Virus record (IMG/VR): IMGVR_UViG_3300025296_000044
Span: 1 to 40,314 of that record
Length of the DNA: 40,314 nt
DNA from: a virus
Lineage: Duplodnaviria; Caudoviricetes
Direction: 5' to 3' (one strand)
Part shown: positions 11,603 through 40,023 of the stretch, one piece after another
Numbering within the stretch: the stretch's first letter is position 1
How the letters are laid out: every line of letters starts with the position of its first letter
Program-made: the position numbers and the translations under genes
Notes under the pieces: model-generated
The model's input: only the letters and a program-made list of their open reading frames with translations
Told to the model about the DNA's origin: nothing
Database searches by the model: none

Positions 11603-11843
11603 CAATATTGCCACCCTGTTTAAGTTTGGTGTATTTCTAAATGATAAAGGTCAATTAGAAATTCAACGAGAGTATCTTCATCCCAGTGATTGGCTAACAG
11701 TCGTCAACGAAAACTTTCCCTCCTATGAAGACAAGGAGTTGATACATAGATTCCTTATTTATTCTCAAAACTTAATGGATCAGGTAGAGAGAGACCTCAG
11801 TACCTACAGTCCTATGCTTAAACCAACCCACCATCATACATAG
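11580..11843 (+). CDS. Hypothetical protein, last gene of the + arm
   Basis: TTG start after AAGGGG. The 3' end overlaps the convergent gene by 26 nt. Confidence 0.55.
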   Translation: MPKRKQDSNIATLFKFGVFLNDKGQLEIQREYLHPSDWLTVVNENFPSYEDKELIHRFLIYSQNLMDQVERDLSTYSPMLKPTHHHT

Positions 11844-13533
11844 GCTTTGTAGATGATGGTACTATGCCACCATCATACATAGGTCTTATTTGACCACCTC
11901 TGTATTTTCCCATTTCTTGTTTAGTTGGATCAAATCCTTCGGAAAATAAAGACTTTGCTTTTTCTGGATGAAGGGCCATAAAACTTATTTCTCCTCCTCC
12001 TTCTGCTTCATTCTCATATCCATATGCATCTGCACCCGTTTTATCTAAAATATTTCTAAGAAATTCAACCCATTGTTCATTACGTTTTTGATTCTCCGGT
12101 AGATCACTAAATTTTAAAGCTCCTCTAGTAATATCCTTCCATAGTTTCACTTTTGCTTCAAAAGGTATCACACTTTCTCCTTCTATATGAACATCAGGCA
12201 TTGACTCTGGTCGAATATTCATAAATATTTTCTCATCATATTCAGGATCGTCAGGATATAATTCAATTACTGATTCAGGATATTGAGTTTCTTGGGCTGC
12301 TGCATACTCATCCATTATTGTATCTATATCAACTTCTGAACCTTCATCATGAAAAGAAGAATAGACTTCATCAAACAGTTCTTCATTAAAAAACCGTCCC
12401 CCATCTGTAGTATAAGACATCTTCCTAATCCACTGTTCTGGATTTTTAAAACTCAGCATGTCAGGAACTTTAAGATACTTGTTTATATTTGCTTGAATAG
12501 GTATAGTATTCATGCCTTCTGGAAGAAGAATGTTTTCTGGATTCTTCATGTACTCATTAACAAAGTTATCAAGTTCATCCTTATTTTCAAGTTGATATTT
12601 ATCAAGAAGTTTTTCTGATACTAAATTCAATTCGGAGATAGCTTCCATATCTTCTTTTGTCCTAGCAGGTGCTATCGACTTAAATTTTGTGTCCGCTTGA
12701 AGTCTTTTTAGAATTTCCTGATATTTTTTTTCATACTCTTCTAAGACTCTATACCTTCCTATATCTGGGTCTTTCGTTTCTCCTTGTCTGGCTAAAAAAG
12801 CATCATACACATGAGGAGCATCTTCCTGAGATACCATATGAATACCAATATCAGAGACTCCAGATACACCACCTTTGCCCTCTGTAGGAATAATTCTTAG
12901 AATATCTTCTACTATTTCAGGATTTTTAGTAACATGCACGAGTTGTTGTCCAAATCCTTTAGATTTTGCTAATTCTCTTTGTGCATTATCAGGTTCTGTA
13001 ACGAACTTATGAATTTTTCCCAATTGGGTTTCGGTCAGATCATATTTTTTTGGACTAGCTTCATCTGTTTCTGTAGTTAAATTATTTTTAACTTCCTCCC
13101 ATAAATCTCCTACATATTCCTGACCAGATTTCTCTAAACCAAAAAGCTCATGTGTAGGTGTATTTTTTAAATAGTCTATGACAGCAGCTTTTGTTTCTTG
13201 AGGAATATGTTTAAGTACCTCTGATGCTATCTGTACAGCAGGAAGTCTTCTGGATAATGCTTTAACAGCAGTTCCTATAACTTTAGGTAACTTCCCCTCT
13301 AAATTTTTAGGAACAGGCTTTGTTGTTACGGGAAGCTGTTGTTCTGTTACTGTACTTGGACTTGGACGTTCTATAATATCCGGTATATTCTCTGCTCTTT
13401 GTCTTAAATCAATAGCTTTATCTTCAAGTTTTTTAAGTTCTTCATCAGGCTCACCACCCTCTGCCATATGCTGTACCATGCCACCATCATACATGGTCTG
13501 TGGTTCAGCCAACATTTCTTTCAGTGTGATCAT
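11818..13533 (-). CDS. Putative virion cargo protein with an ADP-ribosyltransferase-like domain flanked by GG motifs
   Basis: LVHVT, GIHMVS, IPIQANINK and GADAYGYENEAEGGGEISFMALHPEKAKS resemble ART-PolyVal-type domains. MYDGG/MAEGG repeats lie at both termini. Confidence 0.6.
   Translation of the reverse strand: MITLKEMLAEPQTMYDGGMVQHMAEGGEPDEELKKLEDKAIDLRQRAENIPDIIERPSPSTVTEQQLPVTTKPVPKNLEGKLPKVIGTAVKALSRRLPAVQIASEVLKHIPQETKAAVIDYLKNTPTHELFGLEKSGQEYVGDLWEEVKNNLTTETDEASPKKYDLTETQLGKIHKFVTEPDNAQRELAKSKGFGQQLVHVTKNPEIVEDILRIIPTEGKGGVSGVSDIGIHMVSQEDAPHVYDAFLARQGETKDPDIGRYRVLEEYEKKYQEILKRLQADTKFKSIAPARTKEDMEAISELNLVSEKLLDKYQLENKDELDNFVNEYMKNPENILLPEGMNTIPIQANINKYLKVPDMLSFKNPEQWIRKMSYTTDGGRFFNEELFDEVYSSFHDEGSEVDIDTIMDEYAAAQETQYPESVIELYPDDPEYDEKIFMNIRPESMPDVHIEGESVIPFEAKVKLWKDITRGALKFSDLPENQKRNEQWVEFLRNILDKTGADAYGYENEAEGGGEISFMALHPEKAKSLFSEGFDPTKQEMGKYRGGQIRPMYDGGIVPSSTKPMYDGGLV
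11828..11883. repeat. 17-nt direct repeat encoding PMYDGG, with a third related copy at about 13481
   Basis: ccaccatcatacatagg at 11828-11844 and 11867-11883. ccaccatcatacat at 13481-13494. Confidence 0.9.
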
Positions 13534-13802
13534 CAGTGCATTACAATATTATCTTGAAGGTGTACATATTCTTCTGATATCCCATGCTGGCACAATCCTT
13601 TTATATCCAATATTATGGAAGGTATATTACTCTTCCAGTAATCCATGAACTTATCAAAATAGGGGTAGTCAGGTGGAACATCAAAACCCTCATAGTTAAA
13701 CTCCTGAATTAAATGTGGGTAATCAGGAGTCTTGTATATTATGGTCACCAGAACTTTGCTCTGTGATAAATCAGTGGTCATTCCCATTTGTTTTCCCAGC
13801 AT
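13533..13802 (-). CDS. usg: Usg-like protein
   Basis: IIYKTPDYPHLIQEF...DVPPDYPYFDKFMDYW and terminal His match the alphaproteobacterial Usg pattern recalled as YxxPDHPxLLQ...DLAPxFPxLxxFLDFW...LH. Confidence 0.7.
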   Translation of the reverse strand: MLGKQMGMTTDLSQSKVLVTIIYKTPDYPHLIQEFNYEGFDVPPDYPYFDKFMDYWKSNIPSIILDIKGLCQHGISEEYVHLQDNIVMH

Positions 13803-14196
13803 CCTTTATCTGTTCTTTAAGTTCTTCAACTTGATCGTGTCTGGTCTTTTTCCTTACTGCTCTCTCCAGACCATAGGCCGCTCTGACAGTTTCATCATGC
13901 TCAATAAAATTTATTTCCAGTACCCTCACTCTATCAATGAGACGTATCATCATGATACGAAGTTCTTCCAATCTCTTTCCCAGTTGATCTCTGGTATCTC
14001 TTGTTTCCTCATCCAGTTCTTCTTTAAGAATATCAATGGCTTTGACAATATCTTTATGCTCATCATTGAGTTCTTGCTTGAAGCTTCCCGTGATCCATCT
14101 AATGAGCCACCACAGAGCATACCCTGCCGCTGCTGCCGTGAGGACAGGGATACCAACAGTTTCAAATAACTTTACAAACTGTGTTATGGACATCAT
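13771..14196 (-). CDS. Membrane protein with N-terminal TM helix and coiled coil, holin-like
   Basis: VGIPVLTAAAAGYALWWLIRWI hydrophobic segment followed by a heptad-rich region. Confidence 0.6.
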   Translation of the reverse strand: MMSITQFVKLFETVGIPVLTAAAAGYALWWLIRWITGSFKQELNDEHKDIVKAIDILKEELDEETRDTRDQLGKRLEELRIMMIRLIDRVRVLEINFIEHDETVRAAYGLERAVRKKTRHDQVEELKEQIKDAGKTNGNDH

Positions 14197-14622
14197 TTAT
14201 CTGGCAGCACTGGACCCAAAGTAAAAGCTGACAATGGCTGCAAGAGTATGCAGATACATGGGTGCAAGAGCTATACCTCTGACAGCTTGCCATTCTATTG
14301 TATCTGGTGACTGCCATATGAATGGGATGGAGAACCCGCCCTCCTTGACATGAGAAACCATGACTGGTATATCAAAGAAAGGAGCAGCGAAAGGAATTAC
14401 CACAATACAACCCACACATATCAAGGCTATGATCCTGCGAGTCCATGAGAAGTGTTTGTCCTTCTTGCCATGCTCTCTTACATCCTGTAGTACCTTGTGA
14501 CGGGCATTGAGAGCACTCAGCATTAGCTTGTGCTGCTCTGCTTTAGCTTTGACGATCTGCCCTATGAGGGTAGTGACAAAGCCCATTATGGAGCCGCCCA
14601 AGAGGGTTGTTACGAGTTCCAT
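14197..14622 (-). CDS. Holin-like multi-TM protein
   Basis: Three hydrophobic segments, SWTRRII and C-terminal IVSFYFGS, typical of 3TM phage holin-like proteins. Confidence 0.65.
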   Translation of the reverse strand: MELVTTLLGGSIMGFVTTLIGQIVKAKAEQHKLMLSALNARHKVLQDVREHGKKDKHFSWTRRIIALICVGCIVVIPFAAPFFDIPVMVSHVKEGGFSIPFIWQSPDTIEWQAVRGIALAPMYLHTLAAIVSFYFGSSAAR

Positions 14623-15062
14623 TATGTAAAGATTGCTCTTGATCCGGGGGCTGGTTGAATAGTTATTTGAGAATCTCCAGTAGCAGTACTCTCAGTTCCT
14701 ATACCTACACGTTGAGCCTCTCTTGCTCTACTTTCTGGACTCTGACCAAAGATTCTTCTACCAATACCTTCTCCAACATCTGTTAAAGCTTTTTCACTGG
14801 CAATTTGAGCAGGCTGTATTGGTTGTCCAAAATCTTTACTTCTAGGTACATTTGCTCTTTGTAAACTGGGAGGAGCAGCTATATTAGAAAAAGCTATACT
14901 TGGTATTCGTTGTGCCAATGTTTTTTGAAGACCAACATTAGCACTAATAGAAGTTGTTCCCAGAGAAGCCATTTTTAAAGTTGCAGCAGGAAAAGGAACT
15001 GATCCTGTTGATGCTCTTCTTCTGTATTTTGGGGCTGCTAAAGTTGATGAATATGCTACCAT
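14622..15062 (-). CDS. Hypothetical protein
   Basis: 146 aa, TAATG-coupled on both sides. Confidence 0.65.
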   Translation of the reverse strand: MVAYSSTLAAPKYRRRASTGSVPFPAATLKMASLGTTSISANVGLQKTLAQRIPSIAFSNIAAPPSLQRANVPRSKDFGQPIQPAQIASEKALTDVGEGIGRRIFGQSPESRAREAQRVGIGTESTATGDSQITIQPAPGSRAIFT

Positions 15063-21129: not shown

Positions 21130-23190
21130 TCATGAAAGTAATCCACTATAGTTTACTCTGAAGTATCCATCATCTGCCATCATAACAAGATCAGGACGAT
21201 ACTCAATAAGTTCTTGTGCCAATACTCCAACTGTAGGTTGATTATTAACACCTATCTTCTCTGCAACCTCATTCCATTCCCATTCGTAGAGATCAATAGT
21301 AGAATTAAATTCTCCAATCTTTTCTATATTAGTTTTAAGTCTAATATCAGAAAAAAGACCAGCAACAGCAGCACCTCCAGCTTTACTTGCTAAAAATCCT
21401 CCAGCAATAGAACCTATGGCACCAAAGATACCTGCTGTTTTGGATGCACTTTGATTACCTCTGGCAATAGCTGCCTGTTGAGCAAGAGCAGCCGTTGCCG
21501 CTTCTCTGTCCAAGGCACTTTCAACTGACTGGAAAATAAACGCTGCATCATCTCTGCGTTTTTGCCAAAGAGCATTATATTCCTTCTCTCTTAGCCCCAG
21601 AGTAGCCTGTGCGGCAAAAGAGTTAGAGGCCATTTGATTACCATTATTAATAGTAGCTATAGACCTGAACCAGTTAGCATTGGCTGCACGAATAGATGCA
21701 AGCTGATTAGAATTAAATGTTTCTCTAGATAATTCTTGATTTGCAATAAACTGATTAAATGCATTTGTTTCCCCTGCATTGAACTGTCTAATAGCTGTGG
21801 TTCTATTTGCGTTGGCTTCTGATACAGAGTTCTCCAGAGTTGAAAAAAACTGTTCAACCTGATTTGTGGAGGTTGCATTAAACTGTCTGGCTGCATTTTC
21901 TGCTGCCTGATTATTAAATAATTTTTGTGTAAAAGCATTAAAGCTTAATGTATTGGAAGCTTGTTTATTATTAAGATTTGCTGTATCTATGGCAAGAAAA
22001 TTCTGAGCATTATTTACTGCTCCTGTAAGTCTGGCATTAAGATTTTGTGTTCTCATTGCAGCAAGCATACTTGCATTCTGTAATGCCGTTGCTTGCCTAT
22101 TACTAAGATTTGATAATTGTATTCTTCCATAAGCCTCTGCATCTGCACTGGCAATGGGTAATCCGGCCTCAATGAGAGCTTGTGTTCTGGCAGATGCTGC
22201 CATAGAAGAAGCTCCCAGACCTCTTTGTAACATGAGAGAATCTGCATTTCTGGCAGCAGGTGCAGCCCATAGAGGTAGAGGTTGTCCCTCTTTAATAGAA
22301 TCTGTTATTTCTCCCAGTTGAAACTGAAGTGTGGCTCTCTGATCAAGTTCTCCCGTTGCAGCCACTGCCAGTTCTTCCGTGGGTATGGCTTCTTGTATAT
22401 CTCCAATAGTTCTGGTGGGTGCTGCCAATTGGGCAGCGGCAGCTTCTCCTGTATCTGCTATTTGTGCAGCAGTGGCCGTTGCTGCTGGTACTCTGGTAGG
22501 AGCAGCAGTAGTTACACCCGTTGTTGCTACTTGTTGTGCAGGAGCAATGGTAGGAGCCGTAGCAACTCCCAATCCTTGATCTGAAACAAGCTCATCTTGT
22601 CCAGCAGTGAAACTGGGTACTTCTACAGTAGGAGCAGTGGGCACAGTAGGAATAGCCAATTCTGGTGGAGTAGTCTGTTCAGCCGCTCTAATAGCTGCTG
22701 CACCACCCACTCTGGGAGCAAACTGTACAGGATCAAGGGTTTGCTGTCCCTGTTGTGCAGCAGTTGCAGTTCTACTTCCCGGTATCGCATCAAACTGTTC
22801 ATTTGTAAATGCGGGTAAACCAAATTCCCGTCTTTGTGCATTAATTGAAGCTCTTAATCTGTCTGTAATTGCAGCACTTCCAAATCGAGGGTCTGCTGGT
22901 TGAGGACCAGTTACAGTTGATCCCGTATCTTCAATAGGTATAAGACCTTGAATTTGTGCCTGTCGTCGTGGCGATAGCTGGGAAAATCTTAGTGCTTGAT
23001 CAACCTGTGGATCACCACCCTGATAACTCCTAACACCTTCCACAGCTTCCTGACCACTACCGCCCATAGACTTCAGATGAGCAGCTTCCTCTTCATTAAT
23101 GAAAGCTATCTGCTCACCTTCCGGTGCATTCTTTTCCAGCCATTCAATAGCCTTCTTTACATAGGCGGGAGTGTTTTTTGTTTTAGCCAT
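21130..23190 (-). CDS. Internal virion protein with C-terminal peptidase S74 intramolecular chaperone domain
   Basis: Ala/Gln/Asn-rich coiled coil, a glycine zipper, then FSDIRLKTNI...YEWEW...GVLAQEL...GYFRVNY. Confidence 0.75.
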   Translation of the reverse strand: MAKTKNTPAYVKKAIEWLEKNAPEGEQIAFINEEEAAHLKSMGGSGQEAVEGVRSYQGGDPQVDQALRFSQLSPRRQAQIQGLIPIEDTGSTVTGPQPADPRFGSAAITDRLRASINAQRREFGLPAFTNEQFDAIPGSRTATAAQQGQQTLDPVQFAPRVGGAAAIRAAEQTTPPELAIPTVPTAPTVEVPSFTAGQDELVSDQGLGVATAPTIAPAQQVATTGVTTAAPTRVPAATATAAQIADTGEAAAAQLAAPTRTIGDIQEAIPTEELAVAATGELDQRATLQFQLGEITDSIKEGQPLPLWAAPAARNADSLMLQRGLGASSMAASARTQALIEAGLPIASADAEAYGRIQLSNLSNRQATALQNASMLAAMRTQNLNARLTGAVNNAQNFLAIDTANLNNKQASNTLSFNAFTQKLFNNQAAENAARQFNATSTNQVEQFFSTLENSVSEANANRTTAIRQFNAGETNAFNQFIANQELSRETFNSNQLASIRAANANWFRSIATINNGNQMASNSFAAQATLGLREKEYNALWQKRRDDAAFIFQSVESALDREAATAALAQQAAIARGNQSASKTAGIFGAIGSIAGGFLASKAGGAAVAGLFSDIRLKTNIEKIGEFNSTIDLYEWEWNEVAEKIGVNNQPTVGVLAQELIEYRPDLVMMADDGYFRVNYSGLLS

Positions 23191-23532: not shown

Positions 23533-26500
23533 TTATATACTTACTGGAAGAGCGGGAAGATTTTGTTCTGCCAGCTTATCATTTAATTTTTTACTAAATC
23601 CGGGGAGCATTTCATCGCAGATTTCTCTCATAGTTTGAATTATTGACCACTGTTGCCAAATAGCTCCATTATGCAATCGTTGTAATTGAGATGCATTAAA
23701 TAATGGTCTTGCTCCATTTGCCTCATCTTCTTCCGACATTCTTGAAATTAAACCAGCAGCAATTAATTGTTCTTTTCTATCTTCACTATTTATGAAATCG
23801 TCCCATTTACTTTTAATAATGGATGAAGGATCAGCAAATTCCATATCAAATACTCTACAAACTGCTGTATCTGAAAAAGCATCCAATGCTGTATGTGCGT
23901 CGGTAGTTTGATGAACATCTCCATTACCTTTAAGCAACCATCTGGTAGTACTTCCGTTTCCCATTGCAACTATATTGCCGGTAGAACCATGAGTAGTATT
24001 ACCAGTGCCATCTTTGATTAGAGGAAATAGCCATATATTGGCAGTAGAATTGCTCGTATCGTCGGTTGTCTCCCCAGTAGCCACAGTTAAAATTCTTTGA
24101 GCAATAGTTCCTTCAGACAGAGCTAGAGTTTGCGCACCGCCCGGAGCGCCATCATATTTACTAATCTGATAGTAAGTATCGGTCTCTGCACTACCCGTTA
24201 CACCATGAGCCACATCAGAAGATTTTAAAGATAATATGGCATCATCGTTATGTGCTTGGTTTATTGTCAATGCTGCACCGGCTGCGCCAGTATTCGCAGT
24301 ATCAGATAAAAACAATCGTTGATCCGACAAACGCATCTCCTCAGTACCCTGCGATGTCCAACCCAATATTCCTGCGGATACCCAAAACATCCCCGTATCA
24401 GTATCAGATGTGAATGTATATGATGGTGACCCTGCACTACCGTCTCCTGTCCCAATAGTGGTAGCAGTCAGTGCTTGTGCAGCAATTGTACTGCCAGACT
24501 GTGCAGTGAAAGTATTTGCAGTAAACTGAAAGTCATCAGCACCAGCAATACGAATGTCTATTTGATCATCTGTATCTGCTGTAATGCTTGTATCTTGATC
24601 AGCATCAAGAATAAGTTCACCAGCATTCATGTCTATTGTGTTAGTTCCAGCATTCAAAAATGATCCAGTAGATGTAATTGACCATTTTGTAGCGGCTGCT
24701 TCAGAAGAACCTGTCATAAAATCTAATGAAGTTGCGTTGGAACTAGAACTGAAATCTCCTTCTGATCTTGCTTGAATTGCAGCAGCAACTAGAACAGCAT
24801 CTGTACCTGTGCCTTCATCGGGTGCTTGAAATGCAATTTTACCCATTACATCATCAGCAGCCATATCTGTTTCACCAGTTTGTAAAGTGAGAACTATAGG
24901 TTTATCATCAGCAGTAGCAGTATGTTTAAGATTTAATCCTGTATCATGTACATGAGTTAGAGTAATTTCAGAGTTAGCACCAAATGTTAATACAGCAGCA
25001 TCTGATATTAAACCTAAATCATCACTGATAGTTGCATCACCAGTAACAGCCAATGTAGAACCATCAAAGGTTAAATTACCTTCTGCATCCAATTCTGTAG
25101 TTGTAGAACCTATAGTTACAAGTTCATTTGCTGTAGCATTATTAATTGCTGTGACAGCACCAGAAGAAGCCGTTGACCAACTCAATGTACCACTACCATC
25201 AGTTTTTATAACTTGATTTGCTGAACCATCAGCATTAGGTAATGTCCATGTAACATTGGCAGAAATACTATCTGGAGCTTTAAATCCAATATAATGTGCT
25301 CCATTTGCAGCCAGTTCCTGAAACTGTAAAGGAGTAGTATTACCGGAACTTGTTCCATGAGGTGCCAATGAAACACCTGTTGAAGCTACAATTGCCGTAG
25401 TATCATTTCCATCTTCATCATATTCAATAGAGAAATCTTGATCACTTCCTAAATAAATTTTCTTATCATCTGCAATATATAAATCACCAAATTCCAGACT
25501 GGTTGAACCTAAATCTGCTCCACCTGATGCATCAGGTACAAAAGCAGTACTGGCAGTAATAGTGGTAGCTTCAAGAGTTCCAGAACCAGTAACATTGGCA
25601 CCACTGAAAGTAAGGGCAGTAGTAGTACCAGATTTAATAATTAAATTACCACTTGAATTAGTAGCACTACCAAATGTCGTACCATCATCTTTAAAGAAAA
25701 TATCTCCACCACCTGCATCAAGAGTAATATCAGTACCGGCATCAATGGTAGCTAAAGCAGAAGAGGATATCGTAAGGTCTGTCCCATCGCCTTCTATTTT
25801 TTCACCATCATCACCAAACGTAAGACCAATATCTGTTGGTATGTTAATGTCACCACCAGAGCCAACAGTTATGCTTAAATCTGTACCATCAGATTCAATC
25901 TTTTCTGCTGTAGCGAAAGTAATGCCAACTCCACTAGGAATATTAACATCGGCAGTAGCTGTGAGGTTAATATTGTTACCACTAATTGTAAGGTCTGTTC
26001 CATCACCTTCAATCTTTTCGCCATCATCTCCAAACGTAACACCAATGTTTGCAGGAATATTAATATCACCGCTAGAGCCTACAGTAATTGTAAGATCAGT
26101 ACCATCAGATTCAATCTTTTCAGCAGTAGCAAACGTAAGGCCCACACCACTTGGAATATTTACATCAGACGTTGCAGTAAGGTTAATGTTATTACCTGAA
26201 ATAGTAAGGTCTGTTCCATCACCTTCAATTTTTTCTGCATCATCACCAAACGTAAGACCTACGTTAGCTGGAATATTAATATCTGTAGTAGCAGTAAGGT
26301 TTAGATCAGCACTTGCACTGATTGTCAAATCTGTACCATCACCCTCAATTTTCTCACCATCATCACCAAATGTAATACCAATGCTTGCAGGTACATTGAT
26401 ATCACCACCTGAACCTACAGTTATACTAAGGTCCGTACCATCAGATTCAATTTTCTCAGCCGTAGCAAAGGTAATTCCTACTCCGCTAGGAATATTAACG

Positions 26501-27156
26501 TCAGCAGTAGCAGTAAGATTAATGTTATTACCACTAATTGTAAGATCAGTGCCATCACCTTCAATCTTTTCCCCGTCATCTCCGAAAGTAAGACCGATAT
26601 CCGCTGGAATATTGATGTCTCCTCCACTACCGACTGTAATTGAAAGGTCTGTACCGTCTGACTCAATCTTTTCTGCCGTTGCAAATGTGACACCCACCCC
26701 ACTAGGAATATTAACATCAGCGGTGGCAGTAAGGTTGATATTATTACCTGTAATAGTAAGATCAGTGCCGTCCCCTTCAATCTTTTCCCCGTCATCGCCA
26801 AAGGTTATCCCTTTATTTGCAGCTACGTTGATATCTCCTGAATCAATAGTTGCAATCGTGGCACTTCCCGCAACGATAGTGATCGTATCACTATCCGTAT
26901 AACTGGGTGCTCCACCAGAAATACTAATCGTTTCCACAGAGATTTTAGTATCATTATCACTATCTGATAGCAATGCATTATATCCGCCCATTGCATCACC
27001 GCCATCATGTCTGTGACCACTGGAGCTTGTACTGCTTGTTTTTGCAAATGCAGTAAAGATTTCTGCAAATTCATTTGTGAAGTATGCAGCTTCAATTACA
27101 TTTCCAGTAGCTATACTACTGTATGTTGCAGTTTTATCGTAACCTTGAATAGCCAT
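23533..27156 (-). CDS. Tail fibre with internal tandem repeats
   Basis: N-terminal anchor NEF...GHRHDG, Gly/Thr/Asp-rich beta repeats, TWTLPNADGSANQVIKTDGSGTLSW fibre motif. Confidence 0.88.
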   Translation of the reverse strand: MAIQGYDKTATYSSIATGNVIEAAYFTNEFAEIFTAFAKTSSTSSSGHRHDGGDAMGGYNALLSDSDNDTKISVETISISGGAPSYTDSDTITIVAGSATIATIDSGDINVAANKGITFGDDGEKIEGDGTDLTITGNNINLTATADVNIPSGVGVTFATAEKIESDGTDLSITVGSGGDINIPADIGLTFGDDGEKIEGDGTDLTISGNNINLTATADVNIPSGVGITFATAEKIESDGTDLSITVGSGGDINVPASIGITFGDDGEKIEGDGTDLTISASADLNLTATTDINIPANVGLTFGDDAEKIEGDGTDLTISGNNINLTATSDVNIPSGVGLTFATAEKIESDGTDLTITVGSSGDINIPANIGVTFGDDGEKIEGDGTDLTISGNNINLTATADVNIPSGVGITFATAEKIESDGTDLSITVGSGGDINIPTDIGLTFGDDGEKIEGDGTDLTISSSALATIDAGTDITLDAGGGDIFFKDDGTTFGSATNSSGNLIIKSGTTTALTFSGANVTGSGTLEATTITASTAFVPDASGGADLGSTSLEFGDLYIADDKKIYLGSDQDFSIEYDEDGNDTTAIVASTGVSLAPHGTSSGNTTPLQFQELAANGAHYIGFKAPDSISANVTWTLPNADGSANQVIKTDGSGTLSWSTASSGAVTAINNATANELVTIGSTTTELDAEGNLTFDGSTLAVTGDATISDDLGLISDAAVLTFGANSEITLTHVHDTGLNLKHTATADDKPIVLTLQTGETDMAADDVMGKIAFQAPDEGTGTDAVLVAAAIQARSEGDFSSSSNATSLDFMTGSSEAAATKWSITSTGSFLNAGTNTIDMNAGELILDADQDTSITADTDDQIDIRIAGADDFQFTANTFTAQSGSTIAAQALTATTIGTGDGSAGSPSYTFTSDTDTGMFWVSAGILGWTSQGTEEMRLSDQRLFLSDTANTGAAGAALTINQAHNDDAILSLKSSDVAHGVTGSAETDTYYQISKYDGAPGGAQTLALSEGTIAQRILTVATGETTDDTSNSTANIWLFPLIKDGTGNTTHGSTGNIVAMGNGSTTRWLLKGNGDVHQTTDAHTALDAFSDTAVCRVFDMEFADPSSIIKSKWDDFINSEDRKEQLIAAGLISRMSEEDEANGARPLFNASQLQRLHNGAIWQQWSIIQTMREICDEMLPGFSKKLNDKLAEQNLPALPVSI
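25765..26811 (-). repeat. Ten tandem EKIExDGTDL units in the tail fibre
   Basis: Alternating 39-aa A and 33-aa B units in the order A-B-A-B-A'-A-B-A-B-A(partial). Confidence 0.92.
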
Positions 27157-29377: not shown

Positions 29378-29947
29378 TTATCCTGCCTTATAATTAGCTT
29401 TTCTGGGTTGAGCATAGACTTTACCACCGCCCATGTAGCCATACTTCTTGACCTGACCACCTTTAGCTATTTCTACTCCTTGGAATGGTGTAGATATACC
29501 TGATGGACGATCCGCTGTTATGTGTTCTCTAGCAACTAGATTTGGACGATCAAATTTTTCTAAAGAACCAGATTCTCGTTGTGGAAGATCAGCAATTTTT
29601 TTAAGTTCAGCTATAAGAGCAGCAGCCCTCTCTCTCCTTCTCTTCTCTACAAGCCTAGCAGTTTTTCTTTCACCACTTTCTAAATCTCTTGCAGAAGGAG
29701 CCTCAAAGTGTTTTGCTAAGTTCCTCTCCTCTCTTTTTTCTTGAGCCTCTTTCCGTCTTTCAGCCCGTCTTTCTGGTGAAATTACTTTAATATTCGGCCT
29801 GTCAAGACGAGACATCTGATATTCTCTCATTTCTTTTTCTTTAGCTCTGAAAGCTTTGCGTTTTTCTGATGTCATGGCTCTTTTAACATCACGCATTTTT
29901 CTCTTAGCTTCACGGGCTGCTGCTTTTCTTTCTTCTTTATCTGCCAT
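29378..29947 (-). CDS. Arg/Lys/Glu-rich protein with C-terminal GG motifs
   Basis: Ends IAKGGQVKKYGYMGGGKVYAQPRKANYKAG. Confidence 0.7.
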   Translation of the reverse strand: MADKEERKAAAREAKRKMRDVKRAMTSEKRKAFRAKEKEMREYQMSRLDRPNIKVISPERRAERRKEAQEKREERNLAKHFEAPSARDLESGERKTARLVEKRRRERAAALIAELKKIADLPQRESGSLEKFDRPNLVAREHITADRPSGISTPFQGVEIAKGGQVKKYGYMGGGKVYAQPRKANYKAG

Positions 29948-29948: not shown

Positions 29949-30125
29949 TTACTTTCCCCTTTTAGGTTTTCTTAAAGTTGTCAGGCCACCTCTACGGTAG
30001 TTATACTTCTTGGCCTTACCACCAGACTTCATCTTCGTGCCGAGTTTCAGTTTTTCCTGTGGAATATTCCTGCCAATATCAGGATGCAGTTGCTTTACTT
30101 TATCATCTTGTGGATTTACATACAT
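29949..30125 (-). CDS. Small basic protein, 58 aa, with GG motifs (not in the ORF track)
   Basis: Manual translation MYVNPQDDKVKQLHPDIGRNIPQEKLKLGTKMKSGGKAKKYNYRRGGLTTLRKPKRGK*. TAATG-coupled and fills the gap exactly. Confidence 0.75.
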   Translation of the reverse strand: MYVNPQDDKVKQLHPDIGRNIPQEKLKLGTKMKSGGKAKKYNYRRGGLTTLRKPKRGK

Positions 30126-32349: not shown

Positions 32350-32364
32350 AAGTCAGTCCTCCTT

Positions 32365-33324
32365 CTAAGTATTCAGATCAGGGATGCCCTTATAGACACC
32401 CGTAAATCCAGTACCAGATGCACGAATTACCTTGCGACCAAAGACGTGTAGACCACGAACGATATCAGCAAAGCTGTCGGGGTCACGAATAACTTCAGTC
32501 TTGGCAATGGCAGAAGCGGTGCATGTCGAACTCTTATGACCACCAAGAACAATCGTCTCGCCACTTGTAGTGGAGGGTCCAAAAGTATGACTGGCAGCAA
32601 CACCTGCCGTACCAACAGTAATCGCATTAGTCTGATACAAACTAAAACCATGAACCTTACGACTGGTAACAGCACCGTTCAAGAGAGCGGAGGCATCTTC
32701 ACCAGTTACGCTTGAGTCCATTAACTTGGCATCAGCTTGCCGAAGAATTTCATAGAACTGTGGCGGTGCCACAATCCAACGATTGTCTTCAGGAACATCA
32801 GCCTCGTCCAGAAGACGGGAGAACGTACTAAGATAGTTAGCACACTCATTACCCGTATTACATGAAATAGCAGAACCTGCCGCACCGAGATTTGTAGTAT
32901 CGGTGGAGGCATTATCACTAATCACCTTCAGGACGTTATAATCATACGCCTTCTTCAAGCTATAGGCACCCGAAGAAGTCGAAAGAGCTTCCCAGTTTAC
33001 ATGACTCTGTCGCTCTTCCACATCATCAACCTTGAAGGCAAAGTAGTTACCCTGATCAACCGTCAAGGTAATTTGATTGTCCGCAAGATTCTGGGTGTTT
33101 ACAACAGCACCCCTAGTGTAGGACGACACAGTCACTGAAGGCTCTTTAATAATCTTTACAGTATCACCAAAGTTCTCAATCTCTCCAGCATAGTCGGTAT
33201 TGGTTACAGCTTCTGCAACCGAAGAACGCCGGAAGAATTTGAGTACTTTCTGACTGTAAATTGCCGGTACCCAATTACCCGAAGGTAAATTCTGATAACC
33301 AGCAGCTAAACTAAATTCAGCCAT
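32365..33324 (-). CDS. Major capsid protein
   Basis: PAIYSQKV, NTDYAGEIENFGDTVKI and RDPDSFADIVRGLHVFGRKV. Follows the scaffold gene, SD AAGGAG. Confidence 0.92.
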   Translation of the reverse strand: MAEFSLAAGYQNLPSGNWVPAIYSQKVLKFFRRSSVAEAVTNTDYAGEIENFGDTVKIIKEPSVTVSSYTRGAVVNTQNLADNQITLTVDQGNYFAFKVDDVEERQSHVNWEALSTSSGAYSLKKAYDYNVLKVISDNASTDTTNLGAAGSAISCNTGNECANYLSTFSRLLDEADVPEDNRWIVAPPQFYEILRQADAKLMDSSVTGEDASALLNGAVTSRKVHGFSLYQTNAITVGTAGVAASHTFGPSTTSGETIVLGGHKSSTCTASAIAKTEVIRDPDSFADIVRGLHVFGRKVIRASGTGFTGVYKGIPDLNT

Positions 33325-33345
33325 GATTAAGTCTCCTTGTGTTTA

Positions 33346-34206
33346 TTATGGTATAATTCTTCCTTCCCGATTTGCCTTATCAAGTTCCTTTTCAAGAGAC
33401 TCAAATTCATGTGGCTTTAATCGGGCAATTTCAGTGGAAGTCCAGATTTTCTTTTCACTTTCACTGGAAGTGGCAGAGGCTCTTTCTGTTCTAGTTACAG
33501 CCTTTGCAGCTTCAGCTTCAGTCTTTCTGGGTCTTCCTCTTTTCTTTTGACCAATATCTTTATCAGATTTATAGAGGTCTATCACTCTGGCAGCCCATTT
33601 AGAATCTGTTCTGTTCTTGTAGATACCATCAGCAATACTTGAAGGTTGTTCTTCCAGCCATGTGAGAAATTCAGAATCACTCTTGATCTCTAGAAAATCT
33701 GGATGTACTGAAAGTAGTTCCTTCTCTGCTGTTCTGACCTGTGCTTCCTGCTCTGCTTTCCGTAGAGATTCAATTCGATCCTCCACTTCTTTCATACGAG
33801 CATCCGCTTCAAGTCTGGACACGGTTTCCACAACATCATAAACATCAGGATATTCAGTCTTGAACTCTTCCAGTTCTTCAGTAGACTTTGGAAGATTTCG
33901 TGGAGTGGAAGCTTGCTGTTCAGCCAGTTTTAGTTTGGCCTGAGTAAGTTCCTGTTGTTGGAGCCATTCGTTATTCTTACGATCATGATAGCTCTTCAGA
34001 TCACTATAACGCTTTTTCCAATCATGCTCCTTACTGTCCTGTGCCTGTATCATTCCTTCAAGTTCTTGAGTATTTCCATCTGAAAGGTCAAGAAGTTCAG
34101 GGTCTGGTGTTTCAGGAGTAGGATCATCATCCATTAGTGTTCTCCTGTAGGCATTCTGGTATGGGGTAGGCTCTGGTGTTTCCTCTTCTGTGTTAATATC
34201 AGTCAT
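33346..34206 (-). CDS. Capsid scaffolding protein
   Basis: Acidic coiled coil, DWKKRYSDLK, C-terminal ELDKANREGRI, immediately upstream of the capsid gene. Confidence 0.8.
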   Translation of the reverse strand: MTDINTEEETPEPTPYQNAYRRTLMDDDPTPETPDPELLDLSDGNTQELEGMIQAQDSKEHDWKKRYSDLKSYHDRKNNEWLQQQELTQAKLKLAEQQASTPRNLPKSTEELEEFKTEYPDVYDVVETVSRLEADARMKEVEDRIESLRKAEQEAQVRTAEKELLSVHPDFLEIKSDSEFLTWLEEQPSSIADGIYKNRTDSKWAARVIDLYKSDKDIGQKKRGRPRKTEAEAAKAVTRTERASATSSESEKKIWTSTEIARLKPHEFESLEKELDKANREGRIIP

Positions 34207-34213
34207 GGTCTTT

Positions 34214-34291
34214 ACCTCCTATGGGGGCCAAGAAAACTTGGGTGTCCCTATTTGGTGTTAATGTCTGGGGCCGACTATCGGGTATCCAGAC
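34214..34291 (-). promoter_or_regulatory. Twin RNA hairpins with a shared internal loop, next to the scaffold SD
   Basis: Minus strand GTCTGG-ATAC-CCGA-TAG-TCGG-CC-CCAGAC and GGG-ACAC-CCAAG-TTTT-CTTGG-CC-CCC, then ATA-GGAGGT. Confidence 0.7.
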
Positions 34292-34299
34292 GAAATCTT

Positions 34300-36456
34300 T
34301 TAATTTTTACTTAAATAATAAGCAGCAGTTCCTTTTTTGTCTGCTAAAGTATTATATTTTTCTGCCCAAAATTTTGCTCTGCCTTCTATAGTAGCAGGAA
34401 TATCTTTCTCATCTATTGTAGATATGTATAATCTAGCAATAGTGGCATTTACCAAAGGATTCATCATATCTTTTCTTGAAAGATTTTCCCAATTAATATT
34501 TTTTCCCCAAGATGTTACTTTAAAGCTATCTAAATTTTTTCTTAATGAAGAAAATCTAGGATTAGTTTTCTTATTTTTACGATCTTTTTCATAGACTTCA
34601 AGTCTTCTTTTAATTTCTGTATAAGCTTGATTATCTCCCATTCCTACCTGCCACGGACCTAATATATTACTTTCTTTTTTATTCGTCTTTGGATTACCTC
34701 CAAAAGAACTTTCTGCATTAGCAATTTCTGTTAAAAATGTTGCTGTTCTTTCTTTATATTTAGGACTCCCACCTAATACTTTTGATACTGCTTCAATAGC
34801 AGCACTTATATTTCTTCTTTTATATGGTTTTCCTTCTGTATATTTTTTACTTTGTATATCCTTAATTGCAGTAGCAATTAAATTTTCATGTTCTCGTCTG
34901 TAACCTTCTCGAAGTTGTTCAGCCAATTCTTGTTGTGATGTAGGTGTTTTAGGTTGTACTGATGGTAATACTTCTGGTATTTCTACTTGTACTGGCTGTA
35001 CTTTCTTATCCAGAATATCATCCCCGCTGCCACCAAGAATAGTATCATCAGAAGATAACTGTTCTACTTCAGAAGAACTAGTCTTTACTAATGGTTCAGC
35101 ACGACTATTCATTACTGATGGTTCAGGCTTTTCTGGTTCAGTAGTTGACATAAATTTTTCCCATGCCTCTTCTGCATCTTTTCTTTGTGCATCTGCTTGA
35201 GACATAGGAATATCAAAATCTCCTTCAACCTCACCACCCCTATCCATAAGCTGTCCCATCTGCTGTTGCATAGGAGCTTCAGATGCTACTTGTTGCTGTT
35301 GTGGTGGCTGTTGCTGCTGCTGTTGAGCCATGAACTTTTCTTTTTGTTTCCTGAGTTGAAGACCTTTCTGGTTCCATTTCTCCAGCTTATCAAGACCAAT
35401 AATTTCTACCAACGCTTTAGGTATGATAGCTTCTCCATTAGAGATGCGAATAGGGACTTTATTTTGTGGATCATAGTCTGTAGGCACTTCTTTACCCAGT
35501 GCCACGGCAATAGAATATGCATCACGAATTACCTCATTTATATCTGAAATTCCAATTAACTGTACAGCTTCCGCATTAAGAACATAGGAACCTGCTTCTA
35601 CTTCCATATCTAGATCATCTTCAACTCCTGTACCTCCGCTAAAGGGACCGGGAGCACCATCAGCATCAGACACAACCCCCATAGGAACATTGGCAACTTC
35701 CATGTTTGTATCTGCATTCTCTGCTTCTCCTCCCGTTTGAAGATGCTGTATGAGAGCACCTACTCTTCCGCCAGTGTTAAAATAATCTCCACCCGGACTT
35801 TCGTGACCGGGAGCACTGGGAGCATCGACACCATGCTCACCATGTTGTCCCTCTGCGTGTGCTGCACCAAATGCTGCTGCACCATAACCTAAATCATCGT
35901 CTCTGCTACTACCTATTATTGTCGATTTAGCAGGTTCGGGTTCGGGCTTGGGTACTTGTTGTCCAACTCCATGTTCTCCTCTTTCTTGAGATATTTCTTC
36001 TGCATCTAAAACATCTCGATCAGATATCTCTCCTGAAAAACTTGTTCCCGGTAAACTATAAGAATTAGGACCACCTATATAACCATATGCAACGTCCCTA
36101 TTGGGATCAGAACGCTTGGATTCTTCAATAAGTGCTCCATATCTTTCTGCAAGAGTTTGACCCGGAGGAGGAGGTTCTCCAAAAGCATCAAATGCTTCCA
36201 CCAATGCTTTTCCATGTTTGTGTATACTCCTAACAGTTCCAATTACAGGTGTAAAAAACATAGCTATTTCCATGAGAGCTTTTGCTAAACTTGTTTGACT
36301 ATAATCAAAATTAGGATCAGGAGCAGCTTCAGGAGCAAGAGAACCTTCTCCTTGATCATATATAGTAGAATCAACTATAGAAAGAAGATATTCAGGAATT
36401 TCCTCTTTATTTTGTTCTGCAAATTCTTGCATTGCTATATAATCATTAATGGGCAT
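34300..36456 (-). CDS. Multidomain virion protein with a GG-flanked duplicated module and a C-terminal lysozyme/transglycosylase-like domain
   Basis: Central GTGVEDDLDMEVEAGSYVLNAEAV and VPIRISNGEAIIPKALV. C-terminal IANAESSFG...GPWQV...NPLVNATIARLY...FWAEKYNT. Confidence 0.65.
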   Translation of the reverse strand: MPINDYIAMQEFAEQNKEEIPEYLLSIVDSTIYDQGEGSLAPEAAPDPNFDYSQTSLAKALMEIAMFFTPVIGTVRSIHKHGKALVEAFDAFGEPPPPGQTLAERYGALIEESKRSDPNRDVAYGYIGGPNSYSLPGTSFSGEISDRDVLDAEEISQERGEHGVGQQVPKPEPEPAKSTIIGSSRDDDLGYGAAAFGAAHAEGQHGEHGVDAPSAPGHESPGGDYFNTGGRVGALIQHLQTGGEAENADTNMEVANVPMGVVSDADGAPGPFSGGTGVEDDLDMEVEAGSYVLNAEAVQLIGISDINEVIRDAYSIAVALGKEVPTDYDPQNKVPIRISNGEAIIPKALVEIIGLDKLEKWNQKGLQLRKQKEKFMAQQQQQQPPQQQQVASEAPMQQQMGQLMDRGGEVEGDFDIPMSQADAQRKDAEEAWEKFMSTTEPEKPEPSVMNSRAEPLVKTSSSEVEQLSSDDTILGGSGDDILDKKVQPVQVEIPEVLPSVQPKTPTSQQELAEQLREGYRREHENLIATAIKDIQSKKYTEGKPYKRRNISAAIEAVSKVLGGSPKYKERTATFLTEIANAESSFGGNPKTNKKESNILGPWQVGMGDNQAYTEIKRRLEVYEKDRKNKKTNPRFSSLRKNLDSFKVTSWGKNINWENLSRKDMMNPLVNATIARLYISTIDEKDIPATIEGRAKFWAEKYNTLADKKGTAAYYLSKN

Positions 36457-36703
36457 TATATTTATCTTGCTTTCTTAATATATCATCATTGGTAATATTA
36501 GACTGGACCACGTCCTTGAGGTTCTTGATCATTTCCAGTGAAGCCAGCTTCCCCTGCAACCGGCGGAACTCCAACTCCGATATTTCCACCCCCAACGCCT
36601 GATGGGTCCATTGGATTTGCTCCAGCAGGTACTCCTGCATTGGCTCCCATACCTCCGGGTTGTTGACTAGGTGTTGCAGCTTCCGGGCTATTAGTGGGTT
36701 CAT
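36446..36703 (-). CDS. Small post-portal protein overlapping the portal 3' end
   Basis: GAGGT SD before the ATG. FRRLQGKLASL motif resembles small proteins encoded after podovirus portals. Its stop overlaps the next start. Confidence 0.65.
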   Translation of the reverse strand: MNPLIARKLQHLVNNPEVWEPMQEYLLEQIQWTHQALGVEISELEFRRLQGKLASLEMIKNLKDVVQSNITNDDILRKQDKYNAH

Positions 36704-38573
36704 TCAGACCTCTCAGAATATCTGCAAATATTGCTGCCTCATCTGTATTATTCACAAGCTGATCAGGATCAATATCCTGAGAGATTGCAAGTTCTCTCAT
36801 AAGATTTGGAATCTTGATGAAAGGTGCCAGAAGAGGATTGGCAATTGTTTGCAACAGTGTTACAAGTCTTTGACTGCGGACTTCCTTTTGCATGACAGAT
36901 GCAACGCCCCTAGGCTTAATCTCAAGATCACCCATAATCTCGGCATTGTCATCATTAAACTGCATGTTCCATTGGAAGAATGCTTCTCCCAAAGGTCTTA
37001 ACAGATAGTCATCTATATTCTTGACAACAGTTTTAATCGAGAGTCCTGCCGATCCCATGATCATTGATAGACCAGCAGCGGTACGACCAGTTCCTGTTAC
37101 ACCCGTCTGTCCATGAGAGATAGAGGGTATCCCAGTTTCCTCATCTGCAAGCTGTCGTGCAGCCTGATACATTTGAAGGTTCTCTGGAGCCGTGTTGGGG
37201 AATTTAAGCCCGTTGACAGCAGTTCCAGTAACACCAGACTGCCGTCTGAAGATTTTGCCCGGATAAACTTCCATGTTCTGTCCGGGTACAAGTTGTGTTT
37301 CATCAATGTCAAATACCATGTTACCGGCCAGAGCCAGATTATCAATAGCCATTCTCATATGGCCGTTCATGAGAAGCTGTGCATCCTCCATGTTCTCTGC
37401 TATGCCCACACCAAAGAATTGGTAGGGATTAAGTTCATAGGGGAATGCATGATAGGGAATACGAGCAGGTACGAAAGGATTAAGTACGCAACGGATAATC
37501 TTATTATTGACTACCCATGCATTGATCTGTACTGAATCCATATGAGTAATACTGTCTGGTAATTCAAGTCCTATTTCTCTGGCAAGATGAAGGTCCAGTG
37601 TACCCCAGTATTCAAATACTTCATATCTATTTTCTGAATAGAGAGGGTCTTGGTCTTCTGAATAGATTGTATTCTCAAAGTATCTTTCCTGATACTGAGG
37701 ACCATACTCCAGAGCACTTTCAATGGCATCTTCATTAAAGAAGGGTCTGTTGGCAAGCTCTCTGAGTTGTTCCCGATTGTAACGATGCCTTTGTATTACA
37801 TATTCGGCATCTTCAATATTAGTGGCTGAAGGATCAGGATAGAAATTCCAGCAGGATACAGCTTCAATTCGAGGAACAGTCTTCACATATGGTTCAAATA
37901 TCTTCTCATCATCTTCCATCTTCCAGTTATGAACGGTCTTGTCAAAGTTGAATGGTCCCTTGATAATACCTGTACCTAACAGGGAAGATTCAAAGATTGC
38001 ATGTCTTAGAACATTCGTTGCATTGGTATCCAGTAACTGATCATGAATCTGCTTCTCCATATTACGAGCAGCAATAGCGGCTGGTTCGATCTGTGGAGAA
38101 CCCGGAATAACACTTGGTCCCTCTGTCAGACTGGTGGCATTGCCATACTTTTCTTCCAGTCCTCCCAGAAAATCATCAAGTTGCGACAGAGGTACGTTAC
38201 CTGCCTGTTGCATAATCATCTGTTCTTCTGGAGTTGCCAAATGAGCAAACTCGGCAATCCCTTCAGGAATTGGTGTATTGGAAACTGTAATGGGGAATTT
38301 ATTATTGGCAAAGAGGATATCGGAAATCTGTCCGAAGGATGCAAGAACCTTTACTTTGGTAATTCTTACAAATACTTTTGACTTTTCTGATGATCTGTAG
38401 GTAGAGGATGTATCATAGATACCTCTATAGTTCTTGTATGCCTGTAACCAGCGTCTCTCATCGGAAAGACGACCAGTTTCAGCATCAAGAAACTTACTAT
38501 TGATAAAGCCTACAAGACCCGGAAGTTCATCCTCTTCTACTTCTACAGCTTCAGGAAGTTCTTCGTCAGCCAT
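36498..38573 (-). CDS. Portal protein
   Basis: 691 aa between terminase and scaffold. SKVFVRITKVKV, LGTGIIKGP, NFYPDP and PYQFFGVGIAE motifs. Confidence 0.92.
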   Translation of the reverse strand: MADEELPEAVEVEEDELPGLVGFINSKFLDAETGRLSDERRWLQAYKNYRGIYDTSSTYRSSEKSKVFVRITKVKVLASFGQISDILFANNKFPITVSNTPIPEGIAEFAHLATPEEQMIMQQAGNVPLSQLDDFLGGLEEKYGNATSLTEGPSVIPGSPQIEPAAIAARNMEKQIHDQLLDTNATNVLRHAIFESSLLGTGIIKGPFNFDKTVHNWKMEDDEKIFEPYVKTVPRIEAVSCWNFYPDPSATNIEDAEYVIQRHRYNREQLRELANRPFFNEDAIESALEYGPQYQERYFENTIYSEDQDPLYSENRYEVFEYWGTLDLHLAREIGLELPDSITHMDSVQINAWVVNNKIIRCVLNPFVPARIPYHAFPYELNPYQFFGVGIAENMEDAQLLMNGHMRMAIDNLALAGNMVFDIDETQLVPGQNMEVYPGKIFRRQSGVTGTAVNGLKFPNTAPENLQMYQAARQLADEETGIPSISHGQTGVTGTGRTAAGLSMIMGSAGLSIKTVVKNIDDYLLRPLGEAFFQWNMQFNDDNAEIMGDLEIKPRGVASVMQKEVRSQRLVTLLQTIANPLLAPFIKIPNLMRELAISQDIDPDQLVNNTDEAAIFADILRGLNEPTNSPEAATPSQQPGGMGANAGVPAGANPMDPSGVGGGNIGVGVPPVAGEAGFTGNDQEPQGRGPV

Positions 38574-38581
38574 AAATTAAA

Positions 38582-38794
38582 TTATCCTGCCTTTGTAAAA
38601 TCAGAAGTCATCATCTTCTTGCCAGACTCGGAAGGAACATCGGCAGATTGCTTGAAATTTACATCGGTTGGACCCAGAAGGTCTTTCTCCAGTGCTTCAC
38701 GATAAAGAGCGCCATCAGGAACAGGACTCATGTCTCCCTGCTTCTCGGCCATTCCTTCAAAGTCTTTGGCAGTATAGGGTTTTAGATAGGGCAT
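38582..38794 (-). CDS. Small hypothetical protein
   Basis: AAGGAG SD, 70 aa. Confidence 0.7.
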   Translation of the reverse strand: MPYLKPYTAKDFEGMAEKQGDMSPVPDGALYREALEKDLLGPTDVNFKQSADVPSESGKKMMTSDFTKAG

Positions 38795-38805
38795 TAATTT
38801 CTCCT

Positions 38806-40023
38806 TTATTTAATTCTATTGGGTTTACGAACAGAGCCGCCTTTGGCATACTGTTTTATAACTTTGGCAGTACGATAAGACTTCGGGCGGCTGGATACTC
38901 GACCACCTCCCTTCTTTTTTACTTTTTTAATAATATCTTCTGCAAAAGAAGTTTTTCCAGCAGGACTATCTTCTTCACCTCTGGTTGGAGCATCTCTTGT
39001 ATATTCAGTTAGACTTCCCGCTCCTCCAAGAGCAGCATCTCTTTTTGCTTTATTTTCTGCATTCCAATCAGACCAATATTGATCTGCTTCTTCATCACGA
39101 CCTTGCATTTTTAAATCAGTGTATGTAACATCTCTATCTATTTCAGACTTGGAACGACGAAGACCAAACAGCTTTTGTCCAAATCCAGATTCAGCTACTT
39201 TTTTATATGGTGATAGTTCTGCTTGCGTAAATCTAGGACTGGCATCTCTTATAGCTGCTTTTTCTGCTGTTATTCTTCCATACCAATTCTGCATTTTTTG
39301 TCGCATTCTATCCTGAAAAATTTCTTCTCCTTCAGGTGTTGATCTGGTTAAATCAGGATATCCAGCAGAAATTCCGGGTGCTTTACGTCTATAATCCCAA
39401 GGAACATCTTCTCCTATTCTTTGTCTAAATTCGGTAGGTGTAAATCCTTCTGGTGCTTGTTCATCAGGGTCTAATTGTTGTCTATCCACTCTTTTTTGAT
39501 GTTCTTCTCTATATCCTGCTCTTATTTGTTCAGCAAATTCTTGTTGTGAAGTAGGAGCACTAGGTTTACGTCCTAGTTCTGCATCTATCATATCTTGTCG
39601 ATTTTCTGGTCGAGGAATACGGGGATCAACATATTCAGTATCCATATGTTCTAACAGAAGATTAGCCGTTTCAGGAACCATTCCTATACCAACTAATGCT
39701 GCTATAGTCTTCTTCTTAGACATACCTGCTTTAAAATTAGAGAAAATAGTAGCAGCTTTAGGATTTTTTGCTGCTTCTCTAAATGTTTTATTCCAGAAAG
39801 GTGTACCTTGTCCTACAGGTGTTATATGACTTGCTCTTGAAAGAGAACCATCTGCTCTAAAAACACCTCTTGGATTTTTATTTGTTGCTTTTAAAACAGG
39901 TTTTGTAGCACTCTTTACATGAGCAAAAACTTTAGGTAGCTGTTTTGCAGTTACTTTTGCCAATTCTTTTATAGCAAAACGTCCGCCTATCCATACTACT
40001 GCCCAAATTAAAGGTGCTGCCAT
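38806..40023 (-). CDS. Hypothetical late protein with C-terminal GG motifs
   Basis: Hydrophobic N-terminus MAAPLIWAVVWIGG. Ends KKKGGGRV...YAKGGSVRKPNRIK. Confidence 0.7.
   Translation of the reverse strand: MAAPLIWAVVWIGGRFAIKELAKVTAKQLPKVFAHVKSATKPVLKATNKNPRGVFRADGSLSRASHITPVGQGTPFWNKTFREAAKNPKAATIFSNFKAGMSKKKTIAALVGIGMVPETANLLLEHMDTEYVDPRIPRPENRQDMIDAELGRKPSAPTSQQEFAEQIRAGYREEHQKRVDRQQLDPDEQAPEGFTPTEFRQRIGEDVPWDYRRKAPGISAGYPDLTRSTPEGEEIFQDRMRQKMQNWYGRITAEKAAIRDASPRFTQAELSPYKKVAESGFGQKLFGLRRSKSEIDRDVTYTDLKMQGRDEEADQYWSDWNAENKAKRDAALGGAGSLTEYTRDAPTRGEEDSPAGKTSFAEDIIKKVKKKGGGRVSSRPKSYRTAKVIKQYAKGGSVRKPNRIK

Follow-up and report, generated by a model that had tools for sequence, protein, structure and literature searches.

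A Recurrent Gly-Gly Tag on Late Proteins of an HMO-2011-Like Podophage, a Candidate Maturation Site, and a Module Resembling a Tape Measure Unit

Packaged viral proteins can share a short signal that is trimmed during maturation: the capsid targeting sequence of phage T4 is N-terminal only and is cut after Glu by the encoded gp21 protease, and the adenovirus protease cuts after Gly-Gly. Here, we report a peptide of the form hydrophobic-x-x-Gly-Gly-x-Val (the tag) that recurs at the termini, and where modules join, in five late proteins of an uncultured phage, encoded on a 40,314-nucleotide (nt) stretch of DNA (the window; positions 1 to 40,314 of IMG/VR record IMGVR_UViG_3300025296_000044, a 40.3-kb viral record, 77% complete). 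A first-pass annotation had proposed the tag as a capsid-loading signal and/or cleavage site. In contrast to the T4 and adenovirus signals, tags in the window occur at the N-terminus, at the C-terminus, and internally, and a search of the window revealed no protease gene.

The closest described parallels are ejected proteins. Among siphophage tape measure proteins, lambda gpH is cut into pieces of ~78 and 14 kDa, with site and catalyst unknown since 1974 (PMC12617516), T5 pb2 was mapped as cut after R1127 by proteomics and intact-mass mass spectrometry (PMC10038345), giving pb2* and pb2C, and JBD30 gp46 carries a "hook" at residues 1022 to 1066 (PMC11445458). C1 (gp45; PF25725) of crAss001, ejected and portal bound, was modelled at residues 214 to 245 in the tail and 425 to 552 on the portal (PMC10172136). 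The available parts of the two papers on lambda and JBD30 hold no description of the tag, the available main text of the crAss001 paper does not mention cleavage, and no mapped tag site was found in the available parts of papers on Xacm4-11, F-pyocin, JC1, DT57C, phiRIO-1, and phi24B.

Tagged late proteins and their relatives

All 14 copies listed by the first-pass annotation are present in five late open reading frames (ORFs), all on the minus strand. The consensus proposed for them, [MYFLI]xxGGx[VIA], holds for 10; MAEGGEP, KYRGGQI, YRRGGLT, and KKGGGRV depart from it, and it has further matches outside the list, two in a 1278-aa protein and two, overlapping each other, in DNA polymerase. 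None of the five proteins matched a Pfam, PHROG, or NCBIfam family.

The 718-aa protein (34300..36456), encoded between portal and scaffold, consists of a variable N-terminal part, an upstream tag pair (FNTGGRV at aa 226 and LQTGGEA at aa 239; 35722..35781), a conserved doubled module (aa 257 to 385; 35302..35688), a downstream tag (MDRGGEV at aa 404; 35227..35247), and a variable C-terminal domain (34303..34869; lysozyme-like by eye only, no family match). The 571-aa product of the last late gene (11818..13533) has an N-terminal pair (MYDGGMV at aa 14 and MAEGGEP at aa 23; 13447..13494) and a C-terminal triple (KYRGGQI at aa 543, MYDGGIV at aa 552, and MYDGGLV at aa 565; 11821..11907). Three accessory proteins complete the set. 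The basic 189-aa protein (29378..29947), between the adaptor and nozzle genes, has IAKGGQV (29450-29470) and YMGGGKV (29417-29437) followed by a basic tail; the basic 58-aa protein (29949..30125) has MKSGGKA (30012-30032) and YRRGGLT (29979-29999); and the 405-aa protein (38806..40023), between terminase and portal, has KKGGGRV (38896-38916) and YAKGGSV (38830-38850), again followed by a basic tail. Internal translation starts, with the Gly-Gly codons serving as ribosome sites, were ruled out as a source of the motif, GGA not being enriched in tags (26/297 versus 230/1,644).

Within the window, the consensus matched 12 times in 28 late proteins (9,466 aa) against 2.85 in shuffled sequences, or 3.22 with glycines fixed in shuffling; 0 of 2,000 shuffles reached 12 either way. 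The 21 early proteins (3,904 aa) gave 2 matches against 0.49 (189 of 2,000 shuffles reached this). The predicted enrichment of late proteins over shuffled sequences is therefore present, though circular, because the consensus came from the window itself.

An out-of-sample set was drawn from the dereplicated proteins of 160 related loci, minus the window and four close relatives, and was shuffled with glycines fixed. Two families of the gene between portal and scaffold were enriched, namely, the double-module family (54 versus 9.4 shuffled; 25/34 proteins) and the HMO-2011 gp49-like family (104 versus 19.7; 45/56 proteins), as were basic accessory proteins (78 versus 9.2; 45/117 proteins); non-basic accessory proteins gave 21 versus 12.9, a count reached by 11 of 200 shuffles. 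No tag was found in scaffold (0/40), capsid (0/9), portal (0/10), or TerL (0/10) proteins, and nozzle/adaptor proteins were not enriched (3 versus 9.6). A mild excess was seen in tail fibres (20 versus 8.4), in the post-capsid gene (10 versus 4.1), and in the early genes of three cultured phages (7 versus 2.8; 7 of 200 shuffles). Tagged accessory proteins were basic (median net charge, +0.15 versus 0.0), and in 30 of 45 tagged basic proteins the last tag lay at most 17 residues from the C-terminal end. Two blind matrices trained on module-bearing relatives found 0 window sites and 3 against 1.66 expected (235/1,000), respectively; window P1' residues (Y, D, R, M, and K) are accordingly more varied than the family consensus, A/Q. 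The tag is real as a property of the family, and the window copies are divergent.

Tags also mark seams at which flanking domains, some of them muramidases, are exchanged. Among 75 homologues of the 718-aa protein, 60 N-flanks fell into 9 clusters and 36 C-flanks into 9 clusters, which reassort, and 4 of the 75 carry GH24 lysozyme or SLT Pfam domains. The downstream tag (aa 400 to 419) is where 33 of 73 best alignments to the 718-aa protein end, although homologues were picked by matches to aa 222 to 412, which favours ends near this position. In a relative (contig L255), the gene at the position of the 571-aa gene encodes 946 aa with eight tags clustered at module joints; its last module resembles the 571-aa body (31%, E 3e-19), and its tag-bounded first domain recurs inside gp49-like proteins (33%, E 1e-43). 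The L255 protein at 2500-2958 ends in the tag YKYGGKV and its window counterpart (14622-15062) has none, a case of tag gain or loss. A 73-nt segment (79%; 27 aa at 59%; 34883-34955 and 39494-39566) is common to the genes for the 718-aa and 405-aa proteins and reads as a sign of exchange between them.

Tags occur on known ejected proteins (crAss001 C1, lambda gpH, and LKA5 gp58) and on large ejection proteins of LKA5, HTVC115P, and TM27A. The family-specific enrichment, the seams at tags, and these ejected carriers support the proposal that exchangeable late proteins, probably packaged ones, have a signal in common. Some relatives encode proteins consisting of tag repeats only. HMO-2011 has an unannotated protamine-like ORF of 50 aa with Lys-Met-Arg-Gly-Gly repeats (L083:35629-35781, minus strand), and several relatives have similar ORFs of 43 to 57 aa, with one of 180 aa. 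At 21130-23190 (minus strand), the window encodes an internal protein of 686 aa that carries a Peptidase_S74 chaperone domain at the C-terminus and, towards the N-terminus, a unit (aa 24 to 48; a G-E-x-I-A-F-I core, then GG) that is module-like by eye only; the 706-aa protein of HMO-2011 at the same position has two true tags.

The doubled module and tape measure proteins

The module (aa 257 to 385), a ~45-residue unit in doubled form, consists of two related repeats (85%, profile alignment) and is conserved, with 75 homologues at 58 to 100% and 1,548 representatives at E 0.001. Seven residues are invariant in 24 diverse members (D280, G302, S339, E342, G354, L358, and G365). The first repeat keeps Asp-Asp and the second Ser-x-Gly-Glu, and this complementarity suggests that the two form one composite site. 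Across 130 module representatives, 228 tags were counted against 68 in shuffled sequences, with an upstream tag in 107 and a downstream tag in 48; the window module likewise has tags on both sides. By sequence, the module has no family and no solved relative. In the AlphaFold model, the doubled form has four helices and a small pair of strands, and the tags and the Asp-Asp stretch fall under a predicted local distance difference test score of 50 to 52; the single module, as a monomer, formed no strands. Fold searches with the module model, which is partly of low confidence, found nothing at E 0.001 or Z 5.

Single-repeat forms are found in HMO-2011 gp49 and HTVC115P gp72, and LKA5 gp57 has the doubled form. 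The window module core aligned by profile to the HTVC115P-type single-module family at 95.8%, and that family aligned to lambda gpH (hhalign, 93%, E 3e-7) and to the JBD30 "hook" (97%); direct comparison of the window repeats with lambda or JBD30 reached 2 to 17% only, and the link runs through the single-module family. The HTVC115P-type family matched 751 phage records, and most of the 60 matches listed are tape measure proteins; PHROG columns are shared as well. On these profile comparisons, the window module is judged a homologue of the GPGT-SD-IP-S.GE[FY]V-helix-helix unit that lies near the C-terminus of tape measure proteins. In tape measure and single-module proteins, the tag forms the first strand of that unit (F-A-x-G-G-x-V-x-G-P-G), and in one single-module family its place is taken by F-T-G-E-G-E-V. 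The lambda module (gpH residues 733 to 785) lies between F|ATGG and Y|ATGG, the bars marking where a cut would fall; the cleavage known for gpH takes place in the vicinity of this module (PMC12617516).

Window and siphophage proteins are thus alike in having a homologous module on an ejected protein (for the window, predicted), with A-x-G-G tags on both sides in lambda gpH and JBD30 gp46. They differ in that the window module is doubled, is encoded by a podovirus, between the portal and scaffold genes, and is accompanied by tags on proteins without the module. The window has podovirus adaptor and nozzle genes, and neither the long ruler nor the long-tail gene block of a tape measure protein.

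Of 37 loci with the module, 14 have accessory tags (29 in 23.9 thousand aa [kaa]), and the 10 loci without it have none (0 in 6.1 kaa); 33 loci were not classed either way. Consensus matches in partial genomes numbered 1 in 10.6 kaa for HTVC033P, which is without the module, 10 in 13.0 kaa for HMO-2011, 7 in 11.7 kaa for HTVC115P, 2 in 14.4 kaa for CHOED, and 1 in 15.8 kaa for phiM6. This co-occurrence of module and accessory tags is suggestive, not strong; together with the homology, it supports the earlier proposal that the central module of the 718-aa protein matters to the tag system. The TM27A module was matched by tblastn (E 1e-3) and not seen by hidden Markov models (HMMs), and a 170- to 190-aa gene of module-negative phages was rejected as a degenerate module (not significant; profile, 2.3% or less).

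Cutting, docking, and other readings

The reading we prefer, at slightly less than even odds (roughly 45%), is that the tag would be a maturation site cut right after its first residue, so that the released pieces start with x-x-Gly-Gly, with the module possibly the cutter. The 718-aa protein would be one of the ejected proteins, with loading at the portal vertex, and its doubled module would bind tags in cis and on other proteins and make or license the cut. Polyproteins would be split into a muramidase and other payloads, basic tails would be trimmed to short peptides inside the head, and new payloads could enter the system by acquiring the tag.

Three anchors from other phages agree on the bond before x-x-Gly-Gly. 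At R1127 the T5 pb2 sequence is R|AEGG; the 1,219-aa protein has only 2 A-x-G-G sites, this one included, and the cut mapped here separates the channel part from the muralytic C-piece; P-R-A-E-G-G is kept in 12 of 12 distinct T5-like pb2 variants. Residue 425 of crAss001 C1, the first modelled in its portal domain, is the A of N|AFGG; six of the eight A-x-G-G sites of C1 lie at joints, its two modelled pieces are 420 Å apart on opposite sides of the portal, and the available text names four peptide ranges, of which not one spans a tag. In lambda gpH, a cut at F733|ATGG is predicted to yield 79.6 and 12.5 kDa against the reported ~78 and 14 kDa. With these anchors before x-x-Gly-Gly, a cut after Gly-Gly is disfavoured, and the adenovirus-like register of the first-pass annotation is not supported, since the T5 and C1 anchors precede x-x-Gly-Gly and C1 is modelled through two Gly-Gly pairs (G427-G428 and G447-G448).

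Extended to tailed phages at large, the module would be a self-processing peptidase that cuts tape measures in siphophages (lambda gpH at F733|A734 and T5 pb2 at R1127|A1128) and that, in podophages and crassviruses, moved to a portal-bound cargo protein capturing and cutting any tagged protein; we regard this wider version as rather unlikely.

Several observations weigh against cutting at the tag. The evidence for a cut comes from phages other than the window phage and its close relatives. The T5 site is disputed, because an earlier study had placed it at V1148 ± 1 and because trypsin, too, cuts at R1127 (PMC11937520); T5 differs from the window in having one site in one protein. The T5 post-cut unit aligned to the module at 0.5% or less by profile (its relatives being few or close) and the C1 domain at 2.4% or less, so both links are drawn through the motif alone. 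C1 resembles the 718-aa protein in having a similar-sized domain with a Gly-Glu-Val core, and PF25725 is the nearest named family to the module by language-model features (0.81 to 0.85; a lead only), but the PF25725 HMM had no match in the window at E 10, and C1 was not among the fold matches listed for the window module, whose model is partly of low confidence. A second tag-like site, INEGG (444 to 448), lies inside the modelled C1 domain, and a tag that was simply the first strand of this domain would give the model the same start. The module, a small unit, has no peptidase fold or family. P1' is other than Ala in 11 of the 14 window copies, and several tags leave just 6 to 15 residues beyond them, little to release. 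The module-negative loci make up only about three lineages in the capsid tree (phiM6 and TM27A rows, which were wrong ORFs, disregarded), and in three of these loci the gene next to the portal retains tag-like motifs. A partial exception is phiM6, in which no module was detected but one basic ORF is tagged.

The alternative not far behind is that the tag is an uncut docking strand. It would be the first strand of the module itself and, when free on another protein, would complete the module (or a portal groove) in trans, so that cargo is strung together at the portal vertex and is loaded and ejected in order. The tag position of single-module proteins reads F-T-G-E-G-E-V or F-A-D-G-G-R-V and runs straight into the module, which argues that the tag is a structural element; tandem pairs and triples would fit avidity, extreme C-terminal copies make sense as handles, and the C-terminal MRDGG of gpH was resolved uncut (818 to 849). 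No peptidase family was found in 28 late or 19 early window proteins or 20 ORFs of L259, a contig of the same phage (S74 chaperone domain excepted; ~2 kb of genome unseen), or in 18 late proteins of HMO-2011. It leaves without explanation, however, why the T5 cut maps exactly at the tag and, unless long linkers cross the portal, why C1 lies on both sides of it, and neither AlphaFold model orders the tags on the module. Docking and cutting can be steps of one process, in which a tag is bound and then cut.

It is improbable that the tag is a relic or exchange seam, a flexible joint without a common reader left by module-gene fragments spread through recombination. Tag copies within a gene share 14 to 15 nt, the 718-aa and 405-aa genes have their common segment, and flanks reassort at tags, but codons differ between tags of different genes, for which reason a DNA repeat behind all tags was also rejected. 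Neither the C-terminal position of the last tag in basic proteins nor the proteins made solely of tag repeats would be expected of a relic.

Still less probable for the small proteins is that their tags belong to a protamine-like Lys/Arg-Gly-Gly repeat that condenses DNA. The basic charge of tagged accessory proteins and the 43- to 57-aa (KKKMMRGGM)n proteins of relatives and HMO-2011 favour this, whereas the tags of the 571-aa and 718-aa proteins sit in acidic context; such a role can coexist with cutting, basic peptides being the products. Least probable is a separate phage or host protease cutting after Gly-Gly as in adenovirus, which the Hydrophobic-x-Gly-Gly form of some copies (e.g., M-R-G-G repeats) would suit, but for which no gene was found (~2 kb of genome unseen) and against which the T5 cut before x-x-G-G and the uninterrupted C1 model both speak.

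Genome context and meaning

Replication genes (polymerase A, primase-helicase, and class II ribonucleotide reductase) lie on the plus strand of the window, and late genes (portal, capsid, adaptor, nozzle, fibre, and internal proteins) lie on the minus strand. The capsid protein is 62% identical to that of pelagiphage HTVC033P and 40% to that of HMO-2011, with the same gene order, and the capsid/portal/terminase block is related to its counterpart in phages of the HMO-2011 type, of which a DnaJ insert in the polymerase is a defining feature (PMC9038755). No match to this insert, and no such motif, was found in the window's 587-aa polymerase (1492-3255, plus strand, primase-helicase downstream), although the structural block is HMO-2011-type. 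We therefore classify the phage as an HMO-2011-like podophage and not a strict HMO-2011-type member, because its polymerase is without the insert.

Contig L259 adds ~10 kb of the same phage, comprising terminases, an Fe-S assembly gene, and early ORFs. The assembly gene (IscA/HesB-like, PF01521; L259:3688-4005, minus strand) lies upstream of the small terminase, and a low-complexity tract that reads as Ser-Leu-Pro-Gln repeats (L259:5321-6175, plus strand), probably non-coding and perhaps an origin or genome end, lies between the late and early arms. In the window, the portal (36498..38573) and the scaffold, assigned by position, with the major capsid protein (32365..34206) are without tags. 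A Usg-like protein (PF06233, E 1e-12; 13533-13802, minus strand) directly precedes the 571-aa gene and is kept in L255. The 1207-aa tail fibre (23533-27156, minus strand) has an array of ~35-residue internal repeats (aa ~115 to 480) and no family match, and a 446-aa shadow ORF lies on the opposite strand of its gene.

The literature, in which few subscription papers were covered, yielded no account of the tag and none of the module as a unit common to these proteins. The preferred reading makes exact predictions for the cut site and catalyst of lambda gpH and for the choice of the T5 pb2 site, and it bears on how the pieces of crAss001 C1 come to lie on both sides of the portal. Delivery of proteins into bacteria is a possible use of the tag, for loading or for release. 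If the module is a peptidase, it would provide an open plug-in system for injected payloads and the missing catalyst of tape measure cutting in siphophages. If the reading is true, injected proteins would be readable from the tag among unannotated genes, and one module would link the tail rulers of siphophages with the internal cargo of abundant marine podophages and gut crassviruses.

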